Source: Promethearchaeota archaeon
GTDB lineage: Archaea > Asgardarchaeota > Lokiarchaeia > Sigyniarchaeales > SOKP01
DNA: 59,105 nucleotides
Assembly (NCBI GenBank): GCA_030599585.1
Contig: JAUVNS010000022.1
Location: 1-59,105, forward strand
Direction of reading: 5' to 3'
A program made the position numbers and the translations under genes. Every line of letters begins with the position of its first letter. Within the stretch, counting starts at the first letter, position 1. This document shows positions 8,317-49,209 of the stretch, piece by piece. The notes beneath the pieces were generated by a model. That model saw nothing but the letters and a program-made list of their open reading frames with translations. It was not told the DNA's origin and searched no databases.

Positions 8317-8589
8317 TTAGTTCGTAAACCTTATCTGTTATATTATCATACCACGCTTCATAATCGTTAGTGTTCTTTTTGTCTTCTATTTTTCCATTAA
8401 TTCTTAATTCGCAAATATACTGTGTATTTGTATCGGAGAATGTAGCCTTTTGATTAAACATTATATTGAATTTTTGATTATATTTTTATAAGCTAAAAGG
8501 ACTTTAGGAACTTATTTTGTCTAAATTCGATTAATATTATTTTACTTTTTATTATTTTATGATAATATTACTATTAATAATAATATCAT

Positions 8590-8618
8590 ATAGTAATAAT
8601 ATTTGTTATTATTACTAT
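8590..8618. promoter_or_regulatory. 12-bp inverted repeat (candidate operator) in divergent promoter
   Basis: atagtaataata-tttgt-tattattactat, perfect IR upstream of the RHH gene at 8691; very AT-rich context lowers significance. Confidence 0.4.
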
Positions 8619-8690
8619 TAGTTAATATGAAAATTTAAATGTTATTATGAGGTAATAATATATAATATCCAAACAAAAAATAAGGATAAG

Positions 8691-8918
8691 GTGGTTAAAG
8701 TACCAGGATTTTCTGTGTCGTTAAGTAAAGAGTTGTATAGAAAATTACTTAAATTAGAAGATGAAGAAGGAAAAACAACTTCAGGAATAATAAGCGAGAT
8801 TTTAGAAATATTTCTTAATAATAAAGTCTTCCAAAAACTGCATGAAATGAAAATAGAAAAAGATATTGATTTCGCAAAGAATCTTCAAGTAATTTTTCAA
8901 AGGGGTTTAGAAGAATAA
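8691..8918 (+). CDS. Ribbon-helix-helix transcription regulator
   Basis: FSVSLSKELYRKLLKL...TTSGIISEILE. Confidence 0.6.
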   Translation: MVKVPGFSVSLSKELYRKLLKLEDEEGKTTSGIISEILEIFLNNKVFQKLHEMKIEKDIDFAKNLQVIFQRGLEE

Positions 8919-8940
8919 TCTCCTTTTAATCTTTAATACT

Positions 8941-10635
8941 TTAATGTAAATTAGGAAATATCTCTTTACTGGGGTATAATTGTCTAGCTTTTCTAATCGT
9001 ATTGAGCGCAGCTTCACGATTCTTCATACTAAGTAAAATTCCTGCTTTGGTTTCATAAAGTTCAAAGAGTTCTAATTTTTTTGGATTTTTGTTAACAGTT
9101 CTTTCTATTACCTTCAAAGCTGATTTATACCTTTGTAAATCATATGCTAAACAATTTGCTTTTCTTATATAATATCTAATATTCTGAGGGTCCTTTTTTA
9201 TAGCTAAATTAAAAACTTCTAATGCTTCTTCATATTGGTTTAAAGATAATAAAACACTTGCTAGGTCAGAATAATAAATTCCTTCTTGGGGTTCTAATTC
9301 AATGGCTCTATTTATTGCGTTTAAAGCCTCCTCGTATTTATTCTGCCAACTTAAAAAAAAAGCATAATCTGAATAAAAATTCGCTTTTTGAGGATCTAAG
9401 GTAATAGCTTTACATATTGCTTCTACTGCGCCATTATAGTCGCCTGTAATATGTAAAATATGTGCTTTCAGACAATAATTATAAGAATTATATCCATCGC
9501 AATCCATAGCTTTTTGTATAAATTCAGTAGTATATTTAATATTTTCCCGATATTCTAAAGGTAATAGGGCATTATATGCTTCCTCGATATGGAATAAAGT
9601 TCTTTTTTGCAAATAATCCAATCTTTCAAAATCGAAAATTTCAGATGTTAAAATTAAAGTAGGAATTTCGTACAAGTCAAAGCTCTTTATAAACGCTTTC
9701 CTTTTAAGATTCTTTAAAAGCGTTAATAAATAATATTTTACTGTGTCGTATAAAGAGACCTCAAGAGTTTTATGAAAAAGGTTATACTTATTAATAAGTA
9801 CAATTATTACCGCTTCACATATCTCATTAAAAATGATTTCCTGGAATTTATTATTGTAAATATATTGTTCATAATAATAATCTCTTAGTATTGATTGAAT
9901 AGTTATTTCGAAAATGCAACCATATTGGTCACTAGACCTAAAATATAGATTGATCCCCCTCTTTGCTAACTTTAATTTGTAGAATGATATCGTAGTAATT
10001 TTTTTCATTCGAAGCTCGCGTAGAAACCATTTTAATTCATCTTTGGTTAAAATGTCGTTACAATATTTATCAATAAAATCATCAATTGAAATGTTCACGC
10101 TCCCAGAATAATCATAAAATCTAGTATGGTTTAAAGTTAGATATAAGACTGCGATATCAAACTTTTCTTCAGAAAAGAGGCTTAATTTATCCCGATTTAT
10201 TTCATTTTTAAGCTTGAGAAACTCAATCATTATATCTTTATTTTCTATTTCACATTTATTAAGAAACTGAGTATCTAGAGCAACCGTTTTAGATGTAGTT
10301 TTTCGTTCCAAATTTAAGATAGTTTTTACATCTAGATTGTAGGATTTTAATCTTTTAACTAATTCTTTTACCCCTAAATTAGTGATTGTATAAATACTAT
10401 GCTTTTTTTCCCGAGAAACGCTTATATAATTATTACTTTTTAATTTTTTAGCCCATTTATGAAATGTGTTTTTATTCATTCTGTTTTTTATACCCTTCTC
10501 TTTATTATTTATAAATTCCTCACGTTTCATTGGACCATAAACTCCTAAAACATAAAGGATGATATCTTCGTATTGGTCTCTTTCCCAGAGTAAATTTGGG
10601 ATTTTTTGAGGGATAAAATTAATTTTTGTCATCAA
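8941..10635 (-). CDS. Winged-helix + TPR-repeat protein
   Basis: N-term wHTH-like (KKLKSNNYISV...YTITNLG); C-term TPRs (YNGAVEAICKAITLDPQ, YEEALNAINRAIELEPQ, YEEALEVFNLAIKKDPQ). Confidence 0.8.
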   Translation of the reverse strand: MMTKINFIPQKIPNLLWERDQYEDIILYVLGVYGPMKREEFINNKEKGIKNRMNKNTFHKWAKKLKSNNYISVSREKKHSIYTITNLGVKELVKRLKSYNLDVKTILNLERKTTSKTVALDTQFLNKCEIENKDIMIEFLKLKNEINRDKLSLFSEEKFDIAVLYLTLNHTRFYDYSGSVNISIDDFIDKYCNDILTKDELKWFLRELRMKKITTISFYKLKLAKRGINLYFRSSDQYGCIFEITIQSILRDYYYEQYIYNNKFQEIIFNEICEAVIIVLINKYNLFHKTLEVSLYDTVKYYLLTLLKNLKRKAFIKSFDLYEIPTLILTSEIFDFERLDYLQKRTLFHIEEAYNALLPLEYRENIKYTTEFIQKAMDCDGYNSYNYCLKAHILHITGDYNGAVEAICKAITLDPQKANFYSDYAFFLSWQNKYEEALNAINRAIELEPQEGIYYSDLASVLLSLNQYEEALEVFNLAIKKDPQNIRYYIRKANCLAYDLQRYKSALKVIERTVNKNPKKLELFELYETKAGILLSMKNREAALNTIRKARQLYPSKEIFPNLH

Positions 10636-31281: not shown

Positions 31282-34011
31282 ATGAGTTTTGATATCCCAG
31301 ATTCTAAAACTACAGCACTTAACCCTCTAGATTTATATCGGCAATTGAATAAAGATCCGAAATTTAAAGGTTTAATCCACCCACAAGAACCAATGATAGA
31401 AAAATATTATAGTTTACACGATAGTAAAGATTTATCAATACAATTAGCAACTGCGGGAGGAAAAACTTTAATAGGATTACTCATAGGGGAGTGGAGACGC
31501 ACACACTTACAAGAGCGGGTCTTATATTTAACCCCTACAAAACAATTGGCTAACCAAGTAGCAAATGAAGCAGAATCTCTTGGAATTTCAGCGGTTGTTC
31601 TACATGGAACGTTTCTAAATTATCCTGAAGCTGATTGTGAAGCTTACACAAATTGCAAATCAATTGCTATTAGTAATTATACCAATTTTTTTAACACATC
31701 TACTCGATTCAAAGATGGATCAGATGCATACTCGATAGGAAAACCACAATGTTTGATTTGTGATGATGCACATTCAGCTGATAATTATGTTTCAAGTCAA
31801 TATTCAATAGAAATACCTCGAATAAAATATAGATTGTTATATAATCAATTTTTTGATATTTTTAAAGATTATTTTTCTTTTGATTTTGATGAAACAAGTA
31901 AAGTGCAATTAATTCCCGCAGTTCTTATTTCTGAAAACCTTGATAGAATTAACCGTGTACTAGAGAATAACATAGATGTAGAGAGTAAAAAACCCACTGA
32001 TCTTTTTTTTCCTTATCGGAATATTAAAGATCATCTTCACTGTTGTTTGTTTTTTATCTCTTATACAAGAATTCTGATCCGTCCATGGATCTCTCCAACA
32101 TGGACACATCAGCCTTTTAATAATGTAAACCATCGAATATATTTAAGTGCCACCATCGGTCTTTATAATGATCTTGAACGGATTTTTGGAGTATACCCTA
32201 TTAAATCTATTGAATTCTCTGAAAAAACTGATTTGATCAAGGGGAAAAGAATGATATTATTTGTATCCCAAATTCTTACTCAAGTTTCTGAAGAAAAAGA
32301 CAAATTCTTGAGTCAGATTATTAACTCCTTTGATAAAGCATTATTATTATCCCCATCTAACGAAGAAATTAAAAAGATAAAACAACGAGGTTTAATAAAA
32401 CCATTTAACAAAAAAATTGAAGGCAATGAGATAGAAGAAACTCTTGCTCCATTTCAAGACGAAAAAAGTGCAATTCTTTTATTAACAAGATATGATGGTA
32501 TAGATTTGATTGGATGTCCAATGTTAGTTTTTTGGCATGCTCCGACTGCGATTAATCTTCAAGAATCATTTTTGGGAGATACTCTCGGAGAACAAACAAT
32601 TATAAAAACACGCACCCTCACTCGAATTATTCAGGGATTGGGACGATGTACAAGAACAGATAATGATCAAACGCTAGTATTATTATGCGGCAATGAATTT
32701 GTAAATGTATTAAATAAAAGAGATATAAAAAATTTTCCTAGTCAACTGAGTGTTGAAATTGAATATGGATTGGGATGGTCCATGAATAACTCACCTCAAA
32801 AGATTAAAACTCTAATAGATCACTTCAAAAAAAAAACCGCAAATTGGAAAGGTGCAGTTTCGAAAATATTAAGTGAAACAACCAGAAGAAAAAGCGAAGG
32901 AACAACATCTCCAAACAATAATATTCAATCTCTAGAAAATGAAATTAAGTTTATGAAGTCCCTATGGGGAAAAGCTTGGGAGGGGGCAATTAACTATGCA
33001 TCTAAAATAATTACAGATTTAGATGACAAAAAAAAAAAATATCGAGCTTGGTGGTATTATTTCAAAGGACATGCATTGTATTTGAGATATAAAAATACAA
33101 ATCAAGAGGCTTTTTTAAGAACTGCTCTGGAGTGCTTCAAACAGTGTCATCAAGATACTCTGGAGATCACTTCTCTACTACTTCATAATTTCATCGAAAA
33201 ATCACATATAGACAACATATTTATTTCACCAAAAACAGAAAAAGAATTAATTCAAAAAAGTTCTAAAGCGTTACTTATTGGGATAGATTCTTATCAGGAT
33301 ACCAATGTCAATAAATTAACAAGCTGCATTTATGATGTTGATGAAATTAAAGAAATTCTTATAGATCCTAACCGATGTGGATATTCCCCTGAAAATGTGA
33401 TAGTTTTACATAATGCAACTAAGGCTAAAATTATATACAATCTGAAAGAGTTTAGTAATATTTCAGGAAACTCAACTGTGATCATTTATTTTTCTGGACA
33501 TGGAACCCATAAAGATGGAAAATCCTATCTTGTACCAAGCGATTATCAACAAGGAGAAGTAGATACATTAATTTCAGGAGAAGAATTTAGAAAATCGCTA
33601 GATAATATTAATGTTCATCGTTTAGTAATTGTTTTAGATGCTTGTAAATCTGGGGGATTATTTACTAATACAACAATTATAAAAGGAAACGACTCTGATT
33701 TGAAAAGTGGATTAAGTGAAAAGTACTTTAACTCGATTTTAAAGACTCATGGTCGTGTAATTATCTCATCTTCAGGTAAAGAACAGAATTCCCTAGGTGG
33801 GCTTTCAGGAGATTTAAGTTTATTTACCCAATATTTCTGTCAAGGATTAAAGGGTGGTACAGAGGATTATAGAACTTACGATAATGATGGAATGATTAGA
33901 ATACTGGGTTTGATTAAATATATATCATCTAGCACAAAGGCAAAACAAGACGTTTGGTTACGCTGTAATTCTATGGATTTCCCAATTGCACTTTATAAAG
34001 GAGGAAAATAA
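31282..34011 (+). CDS. SF2 (DEAD/DEAH, DinG-like C-lobe) helicase fused to a C-terminal caspase-like (peptidase C14) domain
   Basis: LATAGGKT, YLTPTKQLANQV, DDAH, LSAT, IIQGLGRCTR; KALLIGIDSY, YFSGHG (His), VLDACKSG (Cys), LSLFTQY. Confidence 0.85.
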   Translation: MSFDIPDSKTTALNPLDLYRQLNKDPKFKGLIHPQEPMIEKYYSLHDSKDLSIQLATAGGKTLIGLLIGEWRRTHLQERVLYLTPTKQLANQVANEAESLGISAVVLHGTFLNYPEADCEAYTNCKSIAISNYTNFFNTSTRFKDGSDAYSIGKPQCLICDDAHSADNYVSSQYSIEIPRIKYRLLYNQFFDIFKDYFSFDFDETSKVQLIPAVLISENLDRINRVLENNIDVESKKPTDLFFPYRNIKDHLHCCLFFISYTRILIRPWISPTWTHQPFNNVNHRIYLSATIGLYNDLERIFGVYPIKSIEFSEKTDLIKGKRMILFVSQILTQVSEEKDKFLSQIINSFDKALLLSPSNEEIKKIKQRGLIKPFNKKIEGNEIEETLAPFQDEKSAILLLTRYDGIDLIGCPMLVFWHAPTAINLQESFLGDTLGEQTIIKTRTLTRIIQGLGRCTRTDNDQTLVLLCGNEFVNVLNKRDIKNFPSQLSVEIEYGLGWSMNNSPQKIKTLIDHFKKKTANWKGAVSKILSETTRRKSEGTTSPNNNIQSLENEIKFMKSLWGKAWEGAINYASKIITDLDDKKKKYRAWWYYFKGHALYLRYKNTNQEAFLRTALECFKQCHQDTLEITSLLLHNFIEKSHIDNIFISPKTEKELIQKSSKALLIGIDSYQDTNVNKLTSCIYDVDEIKEILIDPNRCGYSPENVIVLHNATKAKIIYNLKEFSNISGNSTVIIYFSGHGTHKDGKSYLVPSDYQQGEVDTLISGEEFRKSLDNINVHRLVIVLDACKSGGLFTNTTIIKGNDSDLKSGLSEKYFNSILKTHGRVIISSSGKEQNSLGGLSGDLSLFTQYFCQGLKGGTEDYRTYDNDGMIRILGLIKYISSSTKAKQDVWLRCNSMDFPIALYKGGK

Positions 34012-41855: not shown

Positions 41856-42035
41856 CTAATCTTTAATTGATCCTATAAATGCTAACTTTTCTTGAATTGA
41901 TAGAATCTGATCTCCTTCTAATATCTCAAGATCTTCTTTATCAAATTCTAAACAACATATAGGACATTCGATTGTATTTTCATAACTGATTATTTTTTTG
42001 CTTTTACATCGAGGACACTGGTCTTTTTCTGTCAT
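41856..42035 (-). CDS. Zn-ribbon protein, 59 aa, paralog of 43709..43936, absent from ORF track
   Basis: Hand translation MTEKDQCPRCKSKKIISYENTIECPICCLEFDKEDLEILEGDQILSIQEKLAFIGSIKD. Confidence 0.75.
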   Translation of the reverse strand: MTEKDQCPRCKSKKIISYENTIECPICCLEFDKEDLEILEGDQILSIQEKLAFIGSIKD

Positions 42036-42897: not shown

Positions 42898-43082
42898 TGT
42901 GTAATCATATCTCCAAACTTATGAAAATTGAATAAAGCTTTATTGTAAATACACTCAAATTTCTTTATTTATAAAGAAAAAATTAATCTTCAAAATTTGA
43001 TCTGCGAAGGTGAAACTCTAATACTTAGAAATTAGAGATAATTTAATAGAATAAATTCATCTAACTTAGAAATTTAGATATT

Positions 43083-43388
43083 TTAAGCTTCATTTTTTGC
43101 ATATTTCTGAAATTCTATTTCTAAGCTATAACCTGCTTTTAATTTAAATCGTTTTACTATATCTTTTCTAATTGTTATTCCTTTAGAAGAACCCCCTGCT
43201 TTTACCACGGTTCCAGAGGTAGGGATACTTACAGAAATTTTTTCGGTTCCTTCCTTGTAAATTCCTTCAATATGTAATTGTATTGTATCTCCATCGTTGA
43301 TGCCTTCCGCATCTTGAATTGAAGGTGGGATTAAGAACTGTATTGATTTTCCCTTAGTTGATTGTTTTAATTCAACCACATCTCTCAA
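43083..43388 (-). CDS. Tandem AbrB/SpoVT DNA-binding protein
   Basis: FLIPPSIQDAEGINDGDTIQL; shares GIYKEG and GIT with 18517..18810. Confidence 0.65.
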   Translation of the reverse strand: MRDVVELKQSTKGKSIQFLIPPSIQDAEGINDGDTIQLHIEGIYKEGTEKISVSIPTSGTVVKAGGSSKGITIRKDIVKRFKLKAGYSLEIEFQKYAKNEA

Positions 43389-43708
43389 TCTTAATCAACA
43401 GTAATTTTGTAATTAGTATGATAATTTATTTTAAAATATGAACCTCTCAGATATAAGTCTTTTTATTAATTATGTTTCCAGCTTGATGATTATTAACACC
43501 TGTAACTTCTTATAATTCCAAATGAATCCTTATAAAAAAATATATTGAGATGAAAAAATATACTTTCCCAAATATTATATGATTATTTAAGGATATAAAT
43601 AATAAAGTAGATAGAAAATAGATAATATACTATTGAATCCTATTAAAACCAAATAAATACCTTAAAGAATAGAATTTTAGTGTTAAAAATGAAAAAGAAG
43701 AAAGAAAA

Positions 43709-43936
43709 ATGAATAAAAAATATAAATGTCCTAGGTGTGAAGGATTGAATATTCAAGATTTAGGAAAAACAATTGAGTGTGAAGATTGTCAGTTAGAATT
43801 TGAAAAATTTGATATTGAAAATCTCGATAGGGATGAGGTATTAGCTGTTAAAGAAAAACTAGCATTCATAAAAAGTATTAAATCAAACTCTGATGAAAAC
43901 CATTCAGAAAGCAAATTAAAGAAGAAAAAAAGGTAA
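43709..43936 (+). CDS. Zn-ribbon protein
   Basis: CPRC...TIECEDCQLEF...EKLAFIKSIK. Confidence 0.7.
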   Translation: MNKKYKCPRCEGLNIQDLGKTIECEDCQLEFEKFDIENLDRDEVLAVKEKLAFIKSIKSNSDENHSESKLKKKKR

Positions 43937-43988
43937 AAAAAATGTTTTTGGTTAAGAAAAGAATAGTGATTTATGGGGGGGGATCTCA

Positions 43989-44432
43989 TTGATCCATGAA
44001 ATAGGGATTTATCTCAATGGAGTTCTTCTTACTAATCGAACTTATTATAATTCTACAACTCTTAAGACTGATAGAGATTTGATTTGCGCTCTTATTTCTG
44101 CTGTGGAAGTGTTCTATAAAACAACATTTTCACAGGAGTTGGAATATCTCAAAGGAAAGCACCACATCTTAGTATATTCAAAAAAGATTATTAAAAACAT
44201 CGATACAAATGAATCTTTTCATGTTGTAGCTTATGCAATAGTAAATAATAGAAATTCTAGTCTTGAATCTTATGTTGGTAACAAGATTCGGCCAAAATTG
44301 GAAGAATTGCTCAATACATTTGAAATTAATTATGGAAAGTATATTGTGGAACCATTGAATAAAATACCTGGTTTTTCTCGTGAAATTGATGAAATATTTG
44401 CTGAGAGTTGGGAACTACAATCAGAGATTTAA
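43989..44432 (+). CDS. Longin-like domain protein (Asgard-type)
   Basis: MIHEIGIYLNGVLL...DLICALISAVEVF...LEELLNTFEINY...FSREIDEIF. Confidence 0.55.
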   Translation: MIHEIGIYLNGVLLTNRTYYNSTTLKTDRDLICALISAVEVFYKTTFSQELEYLKGKHHILVYSKKIIKNIDTNESFHVVAYAIVNNRNSSLESYVGNKIRPKLEELLNTFEINYGKYIVEPLNKIPGFSREIDEIFAESWELQSEI

Positions 44433-44460
44433 ACTCCTAAAAAGAAATAAACCTGGATTG

Positions 44461-44516
44461 GAGTGAGCAGGAGGGATCATGCCTGTCATAACAATAAAAT
44501 CCCTCTTACTCGACTC
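44461..44516 (+). other. GC-rich intergenic hairpin
   Basis: gagtgagcaggagggat pairs with atccctcttactcgactc (G-U pair, bulge, one mismatch). Confidence 0.6.
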
Positions 44517-44568
44517 TCATTATAAAATCGAAAAAAATTGAAACAATGGAGGGAAATTACTCATTAGT

Positions 44569-44940
44569 ATGGAATTAATTGAAAAAGTGATTAAAGATTT
44601 CCAAGAGATTAAAGCAAAACAGATTCATGATGGAAATTATGTAATTTATCTATGTAATTCTGAAAATGAAAAGATAATTGTAGGAAGGATAAATGATGAT
44701 GAGGTTGCTAGTCAGATATTTGAAAAAAACGCTGGTGAAATAACTGAAGATGATTGGGGCTGGTATGATGAGCAATTAGGAACATCCGATAAAGAATCTT
44801 ATGCAAAGATATATTGGAACGAAGCAGTCGTTAAAAGAGGACATTTAAAAGATAGTATAAGAATAGCGATTGAGAATCTTAATACTGAGAATACCAATAA
44901 GGGTAAAGCTTTTTTAGCAAAATTAAAAGCCAAATATTGA
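44569..44940 (+). CDS. Hypothetical protein directly upstream of the RT
   Basis: 123-aa ORF on the same strand as the RT. Confidence 0.6.
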   Translation: MELIEKVIKDFQEIKAKQIHDGNYVIYLCNSENEKIIVGRINDDEVASQIFEKNAGEITEDDWGWYDEQLGTSDKESYAKIYWNEAVVKRGHLKDSIRIAIENLNTENTNKGKAFLAKLKAKY

Positions 44941-45106
44941 ATTAATCCCAAAGCAACAGATTTCTACAAATAGTAAATAAGAAAATTCAAAAATTTATCA
45001 AAAATCCTTGATTATCTTGACCGCAATAAAGCAATCCCATAAAAATTATTTGGTAAGATGCGGATTTTATTTTTCGGATTATTATTTATCTCAATATGGG
45101 AGTTAT

Positions 45107-46156
45107 ATGAATGACATAGTTCCCAATTTTAACCTCTTGAACATAAATGAATTACCTGTTTTAGTTAGACCCTTTGACCTTGCTGATTATTTGGATATAA
45201 AATTTTCCACTCTAATAAAATACGGGAGTGTAAAAGAAGAGATAACCCTCTCTGAATCGATGTATAAGATATTTACAATAAAAAAGAAGACTGGGGGGAA
45301 ACGATATATCATAACCCCCGTTGATGGATTAAAAGAAATTCAAAAAAAGATTTATAGATTTATTCTTTTACATGTAAGAGCTTCTAGGTTTGCTACGGGA
45401 TTTATACCAACTAAATCAAATATAACAAATGCAAAAAATCATTATGGGTTTAAAGTTATTTACATCTTGGATTTAAAAAACTTTTTTCCTACAATTAAAT
45501 TTTCAAATGTATTTGAAATGTACAATTTAAAATTTGGATATTCAAAAGCCATCTCATTTTTGTTAACTAAATTAACCACTCACTTACCTCGTAGACATTC
45601 CAATGGGATGTTAAAGTTGTTGCCAAATTCTGAAAGTTTTCTTCCCCAAGGATCTCCGAGTTCTCCATACATCTCTAATCTTATTTTTAGCGAAGCAGAT
45701 TATGCTTTATATAAATTATCTCGTAAATATAACTTTGAATACTCTAGATATGCGGATGATATAACTTTTTCTAGTAAGGAACGGAAAATTGTTCCAACTG
45801 AATTTAGAGCAGGTGTAACAAAAATCATCAAGGAATCGGGATTTTATATAAATTACAAAAAGGAGCTCATCACAAGAACAAGACAGAAGATTACTGGAAT
45901 TATTGCCCACGACACACATTTAACACTTCCTCGGCAATGGATAAAGAGACTTCGCGCAGCTCTGCATGAATTAAAATATTTAGACTGTGAGAAAGAAGCG
46001 CTAGAAGTTCTCCTAAATAAGTTAAAGAACGTTCAAGGTAGGATAAACTATGCAATGGGTGTCAATAGGGGGAAATATTATCATTTTTATCTCGAATTTC
46101 AAGAGTTAAGATTATCGAAGTTTAAATATTTATTTAAAGATAAAAAAACAATATAA
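45107..46156 (+). CDS. Retron-type reverse transcriptase (likely start ATG 45107; track ORF starts at 45008)
   Basis: KKTGGKRYI, LKEIQKKI, ATGF, NAKNH (retron NAxxH), LDLKNFFPTI, LPQGSPSSP, YSRYADDITFS, QKITG (VTG-like); ggag SD before 45107. Confidence 0.9.
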   Translation: MNDIVPNFNLLNINELPVLVRPFDLADYLDIKFSTLIKYGSVKEEITLSESMYKIFTIKKKTGGKRYIITPVDGLKEIQKKIYRFILLHVRASRFATGFIPTKSNITNAKNHYGFKVIYILDLKNFFPTIKFSNVFEMYNLKFGYSKAISFLLTKLTTHLPRRHSNGMLKLLPNSESFLPQGSPSSPYISNLIFSEADYALYKLSRKYNFEYSRYADDITFSSKERKIVPTEFRAGVTKIIKESGFYINYKKELITRTRQKITGIIAHDTHLTLPRQWIKRLRAALHELKYLDCEKEALEVLLNKLKNVQGRINYAMGVNRGKYYHFYLEFQELRLSKFKYLFKDKKTI

Positions 46157-46176
46157 TATTTCAGTCACATTATCAC

Positions 46177-46404
46177 AGTTAGGTGTAAAAAGGAGATATA
46201 ACAAAACCAGGCTATCCTTTCTTTATCACAGAGAAGAGGATGTTGTGGTGTTCCGCCACACGAGGTCTTTGAGGTTTCTCGGACTTAGGATTTAGGGACT
46301 TTATAGCGTCTCTTATGATTCTAACGCTCAAGAAATTAATGAAGACATATCAAAATGGGATAATTTATTACTTATCGCTGGTATTTGTTTGATTAACCTA
46401 ACTT
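46177..46404 (+). ncRNA. Candidate retron-like msr-msd structured RNA downstream of the RT
   Basis: Terminal pairing agttaggt(46177)/acctaact(46397) and aacaaaaccag(46200)/ctggtatttgtt(46378); hairpins 46214-46241 and 46244-46260; long imperfect stem 46265-46346; found by hand pairing. Confidence 0.6.
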
Positions 46405-46437
46405 TTAGTTATTTTAATAAATAAGGAGCCGTAAAAC

Positions 46438-47475
46438 ATGTCTAATGCTTACTTTTTATCCCCTCATGAGCTCCAAGTGTTAAATTCTATTCCAAATTAT
46501 CAATCAGATTTCAAATTAGAAAAATTAGAAATCAAAAATTCAATAAAAAGCAAGCTGCAAAGATCACAAATCGATACGGTTAAATTGTTAGCTATAACTC
46601 CACTTTCTGTTATAAGAAAAACGGGCATCAAAATTGAAGATGGAATTAAAATAGTAAAAGATGCTCAAGAATTTTTGAAAACTAATTCTGAAAATAAAAT
46701 CGAGAGTAATAGTTTAACGCATTCAGGAATTTCGACCGGGAGTCAGAAATTAGACAATCTATTAAACGGCGGGATTAAACCTGGGCAATTAGTCCAAATA
46801 CATGGGGGGAGCGGAACTGGAAAAACTCAACTTGCTCACCAGGTTTGCGTAAATGCCCAACTCCCATACGATGAAGGGGGTGTGGATGGAGGCGTGTGTT
46901 TTTTGGATACTGACAATACTTTCCGTCCTGAGAGGATAGTCTCGATGGCAGATGCTTTAAATATGGATTATATAAAAGTGTTAAAAAATATTACTGTAGC
47001 TCGAGCTTATTCCAGCGAACATCAAATCTACATTATAAAGGAGGTATCTAAAATTATAAAGAAAAAAAATATTAAATTAATAGTAATTGATTCCTTAATA
47101 AGTCACTTTCGCAATGAATACCTTGGAGATTCTATTTTTTTAAAAAGACAACAACGTATAAATACCCATATGCTCGACCTGTTGAATTTATTAAAAGATT
47201 TTAATAACTTAGCAATAGTAGTTACTAATCAAGTGACCTATGATCCGAATCTCAACAAAAATAAACCTGCTGGGGGGCGTGTTGTGTTTTTTAACTCATC
47301 CATTCAAATTAAATTATTAAAAGGAAAAGGTACATCTCGAATTGCTAAAATTGTAGAAGCACCACAATTGCCTAACAATGATGCACATTTTTCCATAATG
47401 CGTGAAGGTATCCAAGACTGCAATTCACATTATCTTATAAAAAAAGGGAATTTCTATGATTTGGTTTACTTCTGA
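46438..47475 (+). CDS. radA: RadA/Rad51-family recombinase paralog (divergent)
   Basis: ISTGSQKLDNLLNGG, GGSGTGKTQLAHQVCVNAQLP, TFRPERI, ARAYSSEHQ, IVIDSLISHFRNEY, VVTNQV; N-terminal HhH-like domain. Confidence 0.88.
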   Translation: MSNAYFLSPHELQVLNSIPNYQSDFKLEKLEIKNSIKSKLQRSQIDTVKLLAITPLSVIRKTGIKIEDGIKIVKDAQEFLKTNSENKIESNSLTHSGISTGSQKLDNLLNGGIKPGQLVQIHGGSGTGKTQLAHQVCVNAQLPYDEGGVDGGVCFLDTDNTFRPERIVSMADALNMDYIKVLKNITVARAYSSEHQIYIIKEVSKIIKKKNIKLIVIDSLISHFRNEYLGDSIFLKRQQRINTHMLDLLNLLKDFNNLAIVVTNQVTYDPNLNKNKPAGGRVVFFNSSIQIKLLKGKGTSRIAKIVEAPQLPNNDAHFSIMREGIQDCNSHYLIKKGNFYDLVYF

Positions 47476-47971
47476 TTATCATTTATCTCACAAAAATATA
47501 ATTGAATATTGTAATCGTCCTTTTGAAAATGTTCAAGTAATGGATAGGACAATTGTATCAAACCTTGAGCGTAAATTAGAACCAGGTGATACATTGTATT
47601 TTCTTGGTGATTTAACATTTGATATCAACATAGCATTGCATTTTTTTAAAAATTTTAAAGATATTCAAATTCATTTTATTATAGGAAATCACGACTCAAC
47701 TAAAATTTTAGAAATTGCATATAAATTCTGTGCTACAGTATCGAACTTAAAAGTTATTAAAATAAAAAGGCAAATGATAACTCTTTGCCACTATCCTATT
47801 AGATTTGATAATGACAAACATAATTTTTGGTGTCTTCATGGTCATTCTCATGGAAAGAGTGCTCAAAAAGAGAGGGAATATGATGTAAGCGTGGATAATA
47901 ATGATTTTTTACCCTTATCATATCATGAACTTACTGAAATAATGAGGAAGTCTAGATATAATGTTATTTAA
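47456..47971 (+). CDS. Calcineurin-like metallophosphoesterase
   Basis: TSDYH, LGD, GNHD, CHYP, HGHSH; overlaps radA by 20 nt. Confidence 0.9.
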   Translation: MIWFTSDYHLSHKNIIEYCNRPFENVQVMDRTIVSNLERKLEPGDTLYFLGDLTFDINIALHFFKNFKDIQIHFIIGNHDSTKILEIAYKFCATVSNLKVIKIKRQMITLCHYPIRFDNDKHNFWCLHGHSHGKSAQKEREYDVSVDNNDFLPLSYHELTEIMRKSRYNVI

Positions 47972-48568
47972 AAGGCGTAGATGATTAAACGAAAAACTGA
48001 GATCAACTCATCTCTATATAAAGGAAAAAACGCCACAATTATCGCTCCCACCGATACTTAAAAATAAATTCTCGCTTCTCGAAGAATCACCAATTAAAAA
48101 TCTAAAATAAAAGTGAGAAAAATGTCTCTATGGGTTAATGTTGTTAAAAGAAGATTAGTTCTACTAAATAATAAAATAAAGCAGTATAGCCTAACTTCGC
48201 GCTTTGGAGCTCTTATGGATATGGCGAGTAATTATCGGTTATTAGAGATACAAATGGCAATACAGCAAATAATAGACAATCCATTCTGAGGTAGATCGCT
48301 ATGATGAATTATATGGAAGGCTTAAACGAGTATATTCTTAATATGTGTAATTTAATTCGTTTTCAAACCAAAGAGAAAAATAAAAAAAGTCTTCAGGAAA
48401 CTGCAAAAATTTTAGTAAAGCATAAAGTTCTCCATCAAAAAAGATTGAGAACATTGGAAGCTATTAGAAAGCAAATAGAAGAGGGATTGGAGCAATCATC
48501 TTAACATATTTGTTAGGTTTTTATACATCTTAGAATAAAAAGTTTTGACAAGGATGTGAATATAAAAA

Positions 48569-48841
48569 ATGTCCGATGTGTGGTTATTAAACCGAACAGT
48601 AAATAGATTTCGTAAGTTAGCAAAATCTTATCCAAATGACTCTTTTTATAGTGAATATGCTGATAAATTATCAGAAATCATAAATCTATTTTCTAAAAAA
48701 CCTTCCGAGGTAGATTATGAAAACATTCATAAGAAATACTTCTATTGTGTTAGATGTGGTGCTGAATTTCCCTCGTTAGGCGTTCCTACAAAATGCTTGA
48801 GATGTAAATCTACTAATTTATTAATAATGTTAGTTCACTAA
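48569..48841 (+). CDS. Small protein with C-terminal Zn ribbon
   Basis: CVRCG...CLRCKS. Confidence 0.6.
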   Translation: MSDVWLLNRTVNRFRKLAKSYPNDSFYSEYADKLSEIINLFSKKPSEVDYENIHKKYFYCVRCGAEFPSLGVPTKCLRCKSTNLLIMLVH

Positions 48842-48858
48842 AAAAAGGAGTGGTTTGA

Positions 48859-49209
48859 ATGGATACTGAATATATTTGTGAAGCTGTAAGGAGATTATCC
48901 TTTAATTCGAAAAGCATATATATTCCTATAGCCTTCGCTAAATGGTTTGATGATTCTGGGATTGAGATTGATACTAAGAATCATTTGGTAAAGTCAAATG
49001 GTAACAAAGCAAAGATTCAAATTGATATTGGTTTTAATGACAAAATCGGATATTCTTCTGGAAAGTTTATATGGGCGTTAAGAGAGGCTTTAACTGGAAT
49101 TGAGCAACCTAAAATGAATGCTACTTTTCCGAGCTCTATACATTATGATGTTGAAGTAATGAAACATACTGACGAAGCAATACGGGACATATTAGATTAT
49201 TTTAAATAA
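48859..49209 (+). CDS. Hypothetical protein
   Basis: 116-aa ORF with aggag SD. Confidence 0.55.
   Translation: MDTEYICEAVRRLSFNSKSIYIPIAFAKWFDDSGIEIDTKNHLVKSNGNKAKIQIDIGFNDKIGYSSGKFIWALREALTGIEQPKMNATFPSSIHYDVEVMKHTDEAIRDILDYFK

Follow-up and report, generated by a model that had tools for sequence, protein, structure and literature searches.

The stretch of DNA analysed here (the window, 59,105 nt of a Promethearchaeota archaeon) contains a retron-type reverse transcriptase (RT) gene, which is followed on the same strand by a structured intergenic region and by the genes for a RadA paralog and a small metallophosphoesterase (Table 1). The window also encodes TFIIB, and the genome has four actin-family genes, the best of which scores 442 bits, in line with an archaeal, Asgard-like host. 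A conserved N-terminal YL..GF block places the start of the RT upstream of the ATG at 45107, near 45008. The sequence-only reading had placed the RNA downstream of an RT, and the retron models of both PADLOC and NCBIfam assign this RT to the retrons: RT_XIII matches at 1.4e-79 and is followed by RT_III-A at e-65, the RT_VI model lies about 70 bits lower, and the retron St85/Ec67 models of NCBIfam match at e-52, which is under the cut-offs of those models. RT_XIII is the best model for seven relatives of the window RT as well, with a margin over the next model of approximately 35-100 bits (HMM scores). The motifs NAxxH (NAKNH; N141-A142-x-x-H145), YxDD (YADD; Y248-x-D250-D251) and [V/I]TG (ITG; T296-G297) are invariant across 12 relatives.

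Table 1. Genes and RNA elements of the retron-like locus, with positions in the window.
Feature	Position	Strand	Evidence and remarks
Retron-type RT, 382 aa from TTG 45008	45008-46156	+	Pfam RVT_1 9e-19; PADLOC RT_XIII
Outer 5' arm	46177-46184	+	8/8 pairs with 46396-46403 in the window (sequence, RNAfold)
a2, inner 5' arm of the terminal stem	46198-46210	+	Pairs with 46378-46390; sequence varies by lineage, complementarity kept
Candidate branching (priming) G	46211	+	Unpaired, directly after a2; invariant in 10/10 aligned sequences, present also in L047
msr hairpin 1	46213-46242	+	Base AUCC...GGAU
msr hairpin 2	46244-46260	+	7 bp, loop UUC; core of covariance model R1
Long irregular stem-loop, presumed msd (cDNA template)	46265-46346	+	In RNAfold MFE and centroid structures
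Small hairpin just 5' of the 3' arm	46359-46376	+	RNAfold; window lineage only; weak support
G directly 5' of a1, presumed first templated base	46377	+	Invariant column, as is C46378
a1, inner 3' arm of the terminal stem	46378-46390	+	Partner of a2
Outer 3' arm	46396-46403	+	Complementary to 46177-46184 (sequence, RNAfold)
RadA paralog, 345 aa	46438-47475	+	Pfam Rad51 2.4e-69 (DnaB_C 2e-6)
Small calcineurin-like metallophosphoesterase, 171 aa	47456-47971	+	Pfam Metallophos 2e-6; phrog_547 4e-44; PDB 1xm7 1e-12

Paired arms, an unpaired G46211, two short hairpins and a long stem had been listed from the sequence, and all of them are present at the same positions. The RNAfold structure of the plus strand consists of exactly these elements. 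The core of the inner arms in the window (46200-46210 and 46378-46389) forms 11 pairs with one bulged A. The region 46157-46437 folds on the plus strand with -64.6 kcal/mol (z -2.0; 7 of 200 dinucleotide shuffles fold as well), compared to a z of only -0.15 on the minus strand; for the RNA trimmed from arm to arm, mononucleotide shuffles give a z of -3.3 on the plus and -1.6 on the minus strand. The energy of a single folded sequence is suggestive and counts as modest evidence, and the comparative evidence is stronger. An Rfam search of positions 43000-49000 at E <= 1 returned no match to any family, the curated retron msr families included, and thus no group II intron domain V/VI, curated retron msr or riboswitch is present there.

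A protein search revealed related RTs with 92, 74, 59 and 41-44% identity to the window RT. In the related contigs that were fetched, a gap of approximately 280-340 nt follows the RT gene and almost none precedes it. The same RNA layout lies directly 3' of related RTs (38-92% identity) in ten more loci, namely L022, L023, L039, L025, L027, L028, L026, L038, L040, and L047, which amounts to about seven lineages in all. When these gaps were folded, a common plan appeared. A 13-nt 5' arm ending in G is followed by an unpaired G, by hairpin 1 with its AUCC/GGAU base and by hairpin 2, which has 7-8 bp and a loop of UUC, AUC or AAC in the related loci; then come a variable region with a hairpin of its own, the dinucleotide CG (or UG, AG) and the complementary 3' arm. 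Directly before the invariant G46377, most lineages have a C and the remaining ones a U or an A. Two of the related RT genes show peculiarities of their own. The gene call for the RT of L026 (L026:1659-3122, GCA_030620005.1; 487 aa) extends through the ncRNA, so that its last approximately 100 residues are translated RNA, and the RT of L038 (L038:253-1455) ends in a zinc-ribbon-like tail (C-terminal CPYC...CPNC) that the other members of the clade lack.

A covariance model of the 5' part of the RNA, named R1, was built from seven loci and then matched L038, L039, L040, and L047 with 40-62 bits, each time just 3' of the RT and on its strand (L038, L039, and L040 belong to genomes G104, G061, and G019, respectively). 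R1 has one match in the 4.85-Mb window genome. Among the sampled genomes it matches 5 of 151 within the order and 3 of 151 within the phylum, and the matches fall only into the window's own family; a search of the sister family f2, with RTs of approximately 500 aa (L005-L016), gave no match. A motif scan of metagenomes yielded six loci, of which L047 was new and real and L049 was the same contig as L022. The four others (L045, L046, L048, L050) consist of GC-rich coding sequence and have no RT; their number is approximately that expected by chance. Likewise, the R1 match in L041 (26.8 bits) was judged to be a chance match, having neither an RT nearby nor hairpin 2, and a weak match upstream in L019 (E 0.18) was disregarded.

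Covariation, which the sequence-only reading had proposed as a check, was found across these about seven RT lineages. In the full-length alignment A3, 87.2% of the cells of three helices are paired compared to 35-49% when the partners are slid by one to three columns, and 13 pairs are changed on both sides compared to 3-7 in the slid controls. None of 500 shuffles reached the observed pairing values, but since the structure was derived from the same, related sequences, these counts are not probabilities. The terminal stem has 11-13 bp in 11 loci, with double-sided changes in 9 of its 13 pairs; its sequence differs in every lineage, and 11-13 of the 13 positions pair in five lineages. Its closing pair G46210-C46378 is invariant. 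In hairpin 1, the five basal pairs are kept in ten loci (96% of cells paired) around a loop of 4 to about 30 nt. Hairpin 2 is paired in 98.6% of its cells and shows three compensatory pairs (G-C/A-U, U-A/A-U) and one conserved U-G. Both hairpins together, in ten loci aligned to R1 of which four had not been used for building the model, have 97.5% of the cells paired. The order of elements that had been read as that of a retron, i.e., arm, G, msr hairpins, msd stem and arm, is thus kept with compensatory changes. Moreover, the stems contain 17 G-U cells versus 4 A-C cells, which identifies the RNA strand as that of the RT and, together with the lower z on the plus strand, bears out the strand preference noted before.

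Other parts of the RNA are more variable. The stretch between hairpin 2 and a1 spans some 40 to 170 nt, with unrelated sequences in different lineages: the lineage with 74% RT identity shares the base of the msd stem but has another distal part, longer by about 44 nt, and other lineages have unrelated hairpins at this position. Of the outer arms, about 6 of 8 pairs are kept in the 74-76% lineage, including one change from G-C to A-U (by eye), and none were seen in more distant lineages. The RNAs of L026 and L040, taken as single sequences, fold no better than shuffles.

Could these structures exist without any function as RNA, i.e., as inverted repeats of a small mobile element, as a site at the DNA level or as a chance fold in an AT-rich spacer? 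The terminal repeats do resemble those of a small inverted-repeat mobile element, and the z of the untrimmed region is only -2. However, the RNA is always tied to an RT, its arms covary rather than keep their sequence, its G-U pairs are biased towards one strand, and the internal hairpins are conserved across RTs that are only 38-44% identical. Furthermore, the window RNA occurs once in the 4.85-Mb genome, where every other match is at most 17 nt long. This explanation is hardly credible and is already largely refuted. A template of the DGR or homing type was rejected as well, because neither an exact nor a near duplicate of the msd exists in the genome (the longest chance match is 16-17 nt). 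With one copy of the RNA and no homologue of its variable stem elsewhere in the genome, both a repeat element and a DGR-like target are excluded there.

At the junction where the terminal stem ends, the invariant columns are GG at the end of a2 (46210, 46211) and GC at the start of a1 (46377, 46378), a geometry that would be expected of a retron priming site. In retrons, priming occurs at the branching G and copying proceeds into the msd (PMC7736814), and by analogy G46211 would be the priming residue. A different chemistry has to be weighed here, in which the RNA is a template or scaffold primed in another way (by a 3'-OH, by protein or de novo) or only regulates the RT, as in DRT2. According to PMC12039810, some defence RTs work with structured ncRNAs next to them by a chemistry other than that of retrons, and the branch at the window RNA is itself putative. 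Against such a non-classical RNA, which we regard as quite improbable, the window RT scores as a retron RT on every retron model and reaches only 8.5e-11 on the Drt2 model, and the order of arm, G, hairpins, stem and arm is specific to retrons.

Each of the 11 loci has its RNA 3' of the RT and on the strand of the RT, and the usual position upstream of the RT does not occur. The upstream genes end 0-67 nt before the RT start in these loci, too close for an RNA of this kind to fit in anywhere; in the window, the RT starts near 45008 and the preceding gene ends at 44940, so that the approximately 67 nt between them leave no space for an upstream RNA. The reversed gene order which had been suggested for this locus is a feature of the whole group. 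A conserved partner upstream of the RT was also considered and rejected, because the lineages have unrelated genes on that side. In most loci, 8-46 nt separate the RNA from the RT stop, which argues for co-transcription of both. An engineered order with the RT before the ncRNA yielded RT-DNA in E. coli in an experimental census (10.1101/2024.01.25.577267), which makes the reversed order compatible with function. It is unusual rather than mechanistically surprising.

The gene behind the RNA is radA in the window, L022, L023, L039, and L026, the phosphoesterase gene in L025 and L027, and a gene for an RPA-like OB-fold protein in L040. In L038 and L028 there is no recognizable partner gene; the RNA is followed there by a GH38 mannosidase gene and by a convergent JAB/methylase pair, respectively. 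This arrangement bears on whether the RNA could act in cis as a leader that controls translation or transcription of the RadA and phosphoesterase genes, either without any reverse transcription or in the manner of type VI hybrid RNAs, where the cDNA derepresses the effector on the same transcript. The RNA is directly upstream of partner genes in the window, L025, L027, L039, L026, and L040, about 35 nt with an AGGAG (46424-46428) separate its end from the RadA start, and type VI retrons join the template and the effector mRNA in one RNA (10.1101/2025.10.22.683967). We nevertheless consider a leader improbable: the RNA stays behind the RT even where the next gene is unrelated (L038) or convergent (L028), its arms leave the ribosome-binding site of RadA uncovered, most loci have short T runs behind the 3' arm, and the invariant GG/GC junction suits priming better.

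Taken together, the region 46177-46404 is very probably the msr-msd template RNA of a retron that lies immediately 3' of its RT gene on the same strand. For the window locus we infer co-transcription, cDNA synthesis and a branch point, which could proceed as follows. The RNA would form the 3' part of the RT transcript. In the window, transcription may continue into the RadA and phosphoesterase genes, and the short T runs behind the 3' arm may terminate a fraction of the transcripts. Pairing of a2 with a1 would leave G46211 unpaired opposite G46377. The RT would then bind the two conserved msr hairpins, prime from the 2'-OH of G46211 and copy the variable stem leftwards from G46377, and the product would be a branched ssDNA of up to about 110 nt.

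The window genome has only two RT loci. The second one, on contig C21 (G000:C21:274000-286000, L044), is a type XIII-like operon that encodes a helical-repeat protein, a SWIM protein and an RT and is headed by a phosphoesterase paralog. Three RNA units of the arm-G-hairpin kind lie in tandem behind its RT (reverse strand of L044, about 8330-9075); their short arms read TCTCTG/CAGAGA or ATCCTTG/CAGGGAT, the 5' arm is followed by a G, and the hairpin is of the type CGGCG-UUG-CGCCG. As the C21 RT also has its RNA units downstream, this position seems to be general for this Asgard RT clade. The RT match at this locus consists of two aligned pieces with a TAA between them.

Type XIII retrons, the closest known type by RT model, correspond to RT clade 10 and are Mx162-like (Mestre et al., 2020, PMC7736814). 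The window locus shares with them an RT that scores best on RT_XIII, the retron motifs, the a1/a2 arms and the G after a2. However, type XIII retrons encode a SWIM/DEDE protein (cluster 114), usually together with an ARM/HEAT protein (cluster 216), both of which are absent at the window locus: neither the ORFs of window 39.9-58.6 kb nor the neighbours in L025-L028 had a SWIM or helical-repeat match, and none of them was large enough. Moreover, the ncRNA of type XIII retrons precedes the RT, whereas that of the window follows it, the host is archaeal, and the partner genes encode a metallophosphoesterase, to which RadA or an RPA-like protein may be added. With canonical retrons such as Ec86/Eco1 the locus has in common the set of RT, structured template RNA and accessory genes as well as the terminal inverted repeats, the branching G by the 5' arm, the conserved msr hairpins and the variable msd stem, but the canonical order is msr-msd, RT and effector instead of RT, ncRNA and partners. 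In type VI retrons (Retron-Vpa2) the template RNA is also directly upstream of the effector gene and maybe co-transcribed with it, and the triggers of Retron-Vpa2 are phage recombination proteins (10.1101/2025.10.22.683967). These triggers would resonate with the RadA and RPA-like partners found here. Type VI nonetheless differs by its other RT clade and by its small toxin or HTH pair, which is missing at the window locus, and the window RNA overlaps neither a partner coding sequence nor a ribosome-binding site. In TXI_noncan_h, a type XI-like system with a DnaB_C-like partner (PMC13712802), an RT is likewise followed by a separate ORF for a RecA-fold ATPase; its candidate ncRNA, however, was modelled within the 300 bp upstream of the RT, its RT belongs to a type XI-like clade, and its hosts are bacteria. 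The partner in the window is furthermore a true RadA (Rad51 2e-69 versus DnaB_C 2e-6).

In the literature searched, neither a natural retron with a downstream RNA nor an archaeal retron linked to RadA or a phosphoesterase was found. Retrons make up about 4% of archaeal RTs (PMC8632793). As this whole archaeal retron clade has its template RNA downstream of the RT, searches that look only upstream miss this RNA. The RT and RNA, which together form a compact pair of about 1.4 kb, could be used for testing msDNA production in archaea, and the pair may serve as a new scaffold for ssDNA production. To our knowledge, retron studies are almost all bacterial, the tools seek the retron RNA upstream of the RT, and no msDNA has been shown in any archaeon to date.

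Among the partner genes, the phosphoesterase is the most constant one. In the window its gene overlaps that of RadA by 20 nt; homologues come directly after the RNA in L025 and L027, and after RadA in L026 and L039. The proteins are 52-57% identical between lineages whose RTs are about 43% identical, and all catalytic motifs are intact. The window protein belongs to the phage family phrog_547, and its nearest solved relative, 1xm7, is an uncharacterized protein. Phosphoesterase paralogs adjoin both RT loci of the window genome, including the C21 operon, as well as both RT loci of G019. A second paralog in the window, at 56800-57339 on the minus strand, has 74% DNA identity to 47446-47695, lies 9 kb away and has no RT nearby; it is adjoined on the same strand by a 342-aa ORF without Pfam matches (57562-58590).

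The RadA of the window is a divergent member of its family. It scores 288 bits on NF003301 compared to 449 and 448 bits for the best two of the six RadA genes in the genome, and while Walker A and B are kept, DTE is changed to DTD, the L2 histidine is lost, and there is no FxxA polymerization motif. RadA follows the RNA also in L026, the RT of which is only 43% identical to that of the window. The RadA of L026 itself keeps DTE and the L2 histidine and has an F-R-S-G stretch at the place of FxxA. Elsewhere in the window genome, two near-identical RadA paralogs (G000:C12:52388-53354 and C49:49424-50390) are matched by the family model in two pieces (4-269, 270-315), which suggests a frameshift, a split or an insertion.

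No bacterial retron effector family was detected at the locus by Pfam or PADLOC. Since no toxin-like effector was identified anywhere in the RNA-bearing RT family either, a defence role is conjecture. The partners are instead ssDNA-handling proteins, which are absent from the lists of retron effectors. We favour, although only tentatively, the view that the complex of RT, RNA and DNA acts together with the metallophosphoesterase, and in some lineages with the RadA paralog or the RPA-like ssDNA binder, in defence or conflict, by sensing the ssDNA and recombination machinery of invaders or by interfering with it. A further, rather unlikely idea is that the retron cDNA is the substrate of its own ssDNA machinery. 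The phosphoesterase would then process or debranch the msDNA, and the filament-defective RadA or the RPA-like protein would be loaded onto it. The result would be a nucleoprotein decoy in which viral recombination or anti-defence proteins are trapped, or else a natural device for retron-templated recombination. If true, both versions would provide the first demonstration of retron biology in the closest lineage to eukaryotes.

The 19-kb surroundings of the locus show no synteny in 41 congeneric genomes, and the RT was found in 1 of 36 congeners sampled, which characterizes the locus as accessory DNA. A search for related loci in genome contigs seeded with a single RT found none. Upstream of the RT, at 43709-43936 on the plus strand, lies the gene for a 75-aa protein of unknown family, which has a paralog 1.7 kb away (41856-42035, minus strand); in L022 and L026, a homologue lies three genes ahead of the RT. 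Further away, positions 31282-34011 encode a 909-aa protein in which a DEAD/ResIII helicase is fused to a caspase domain (Peptidase_C14), with DUF4238 and Cdc6/Orc1 genes nearby, and from its gene content this area looks like a defence or mobile island.
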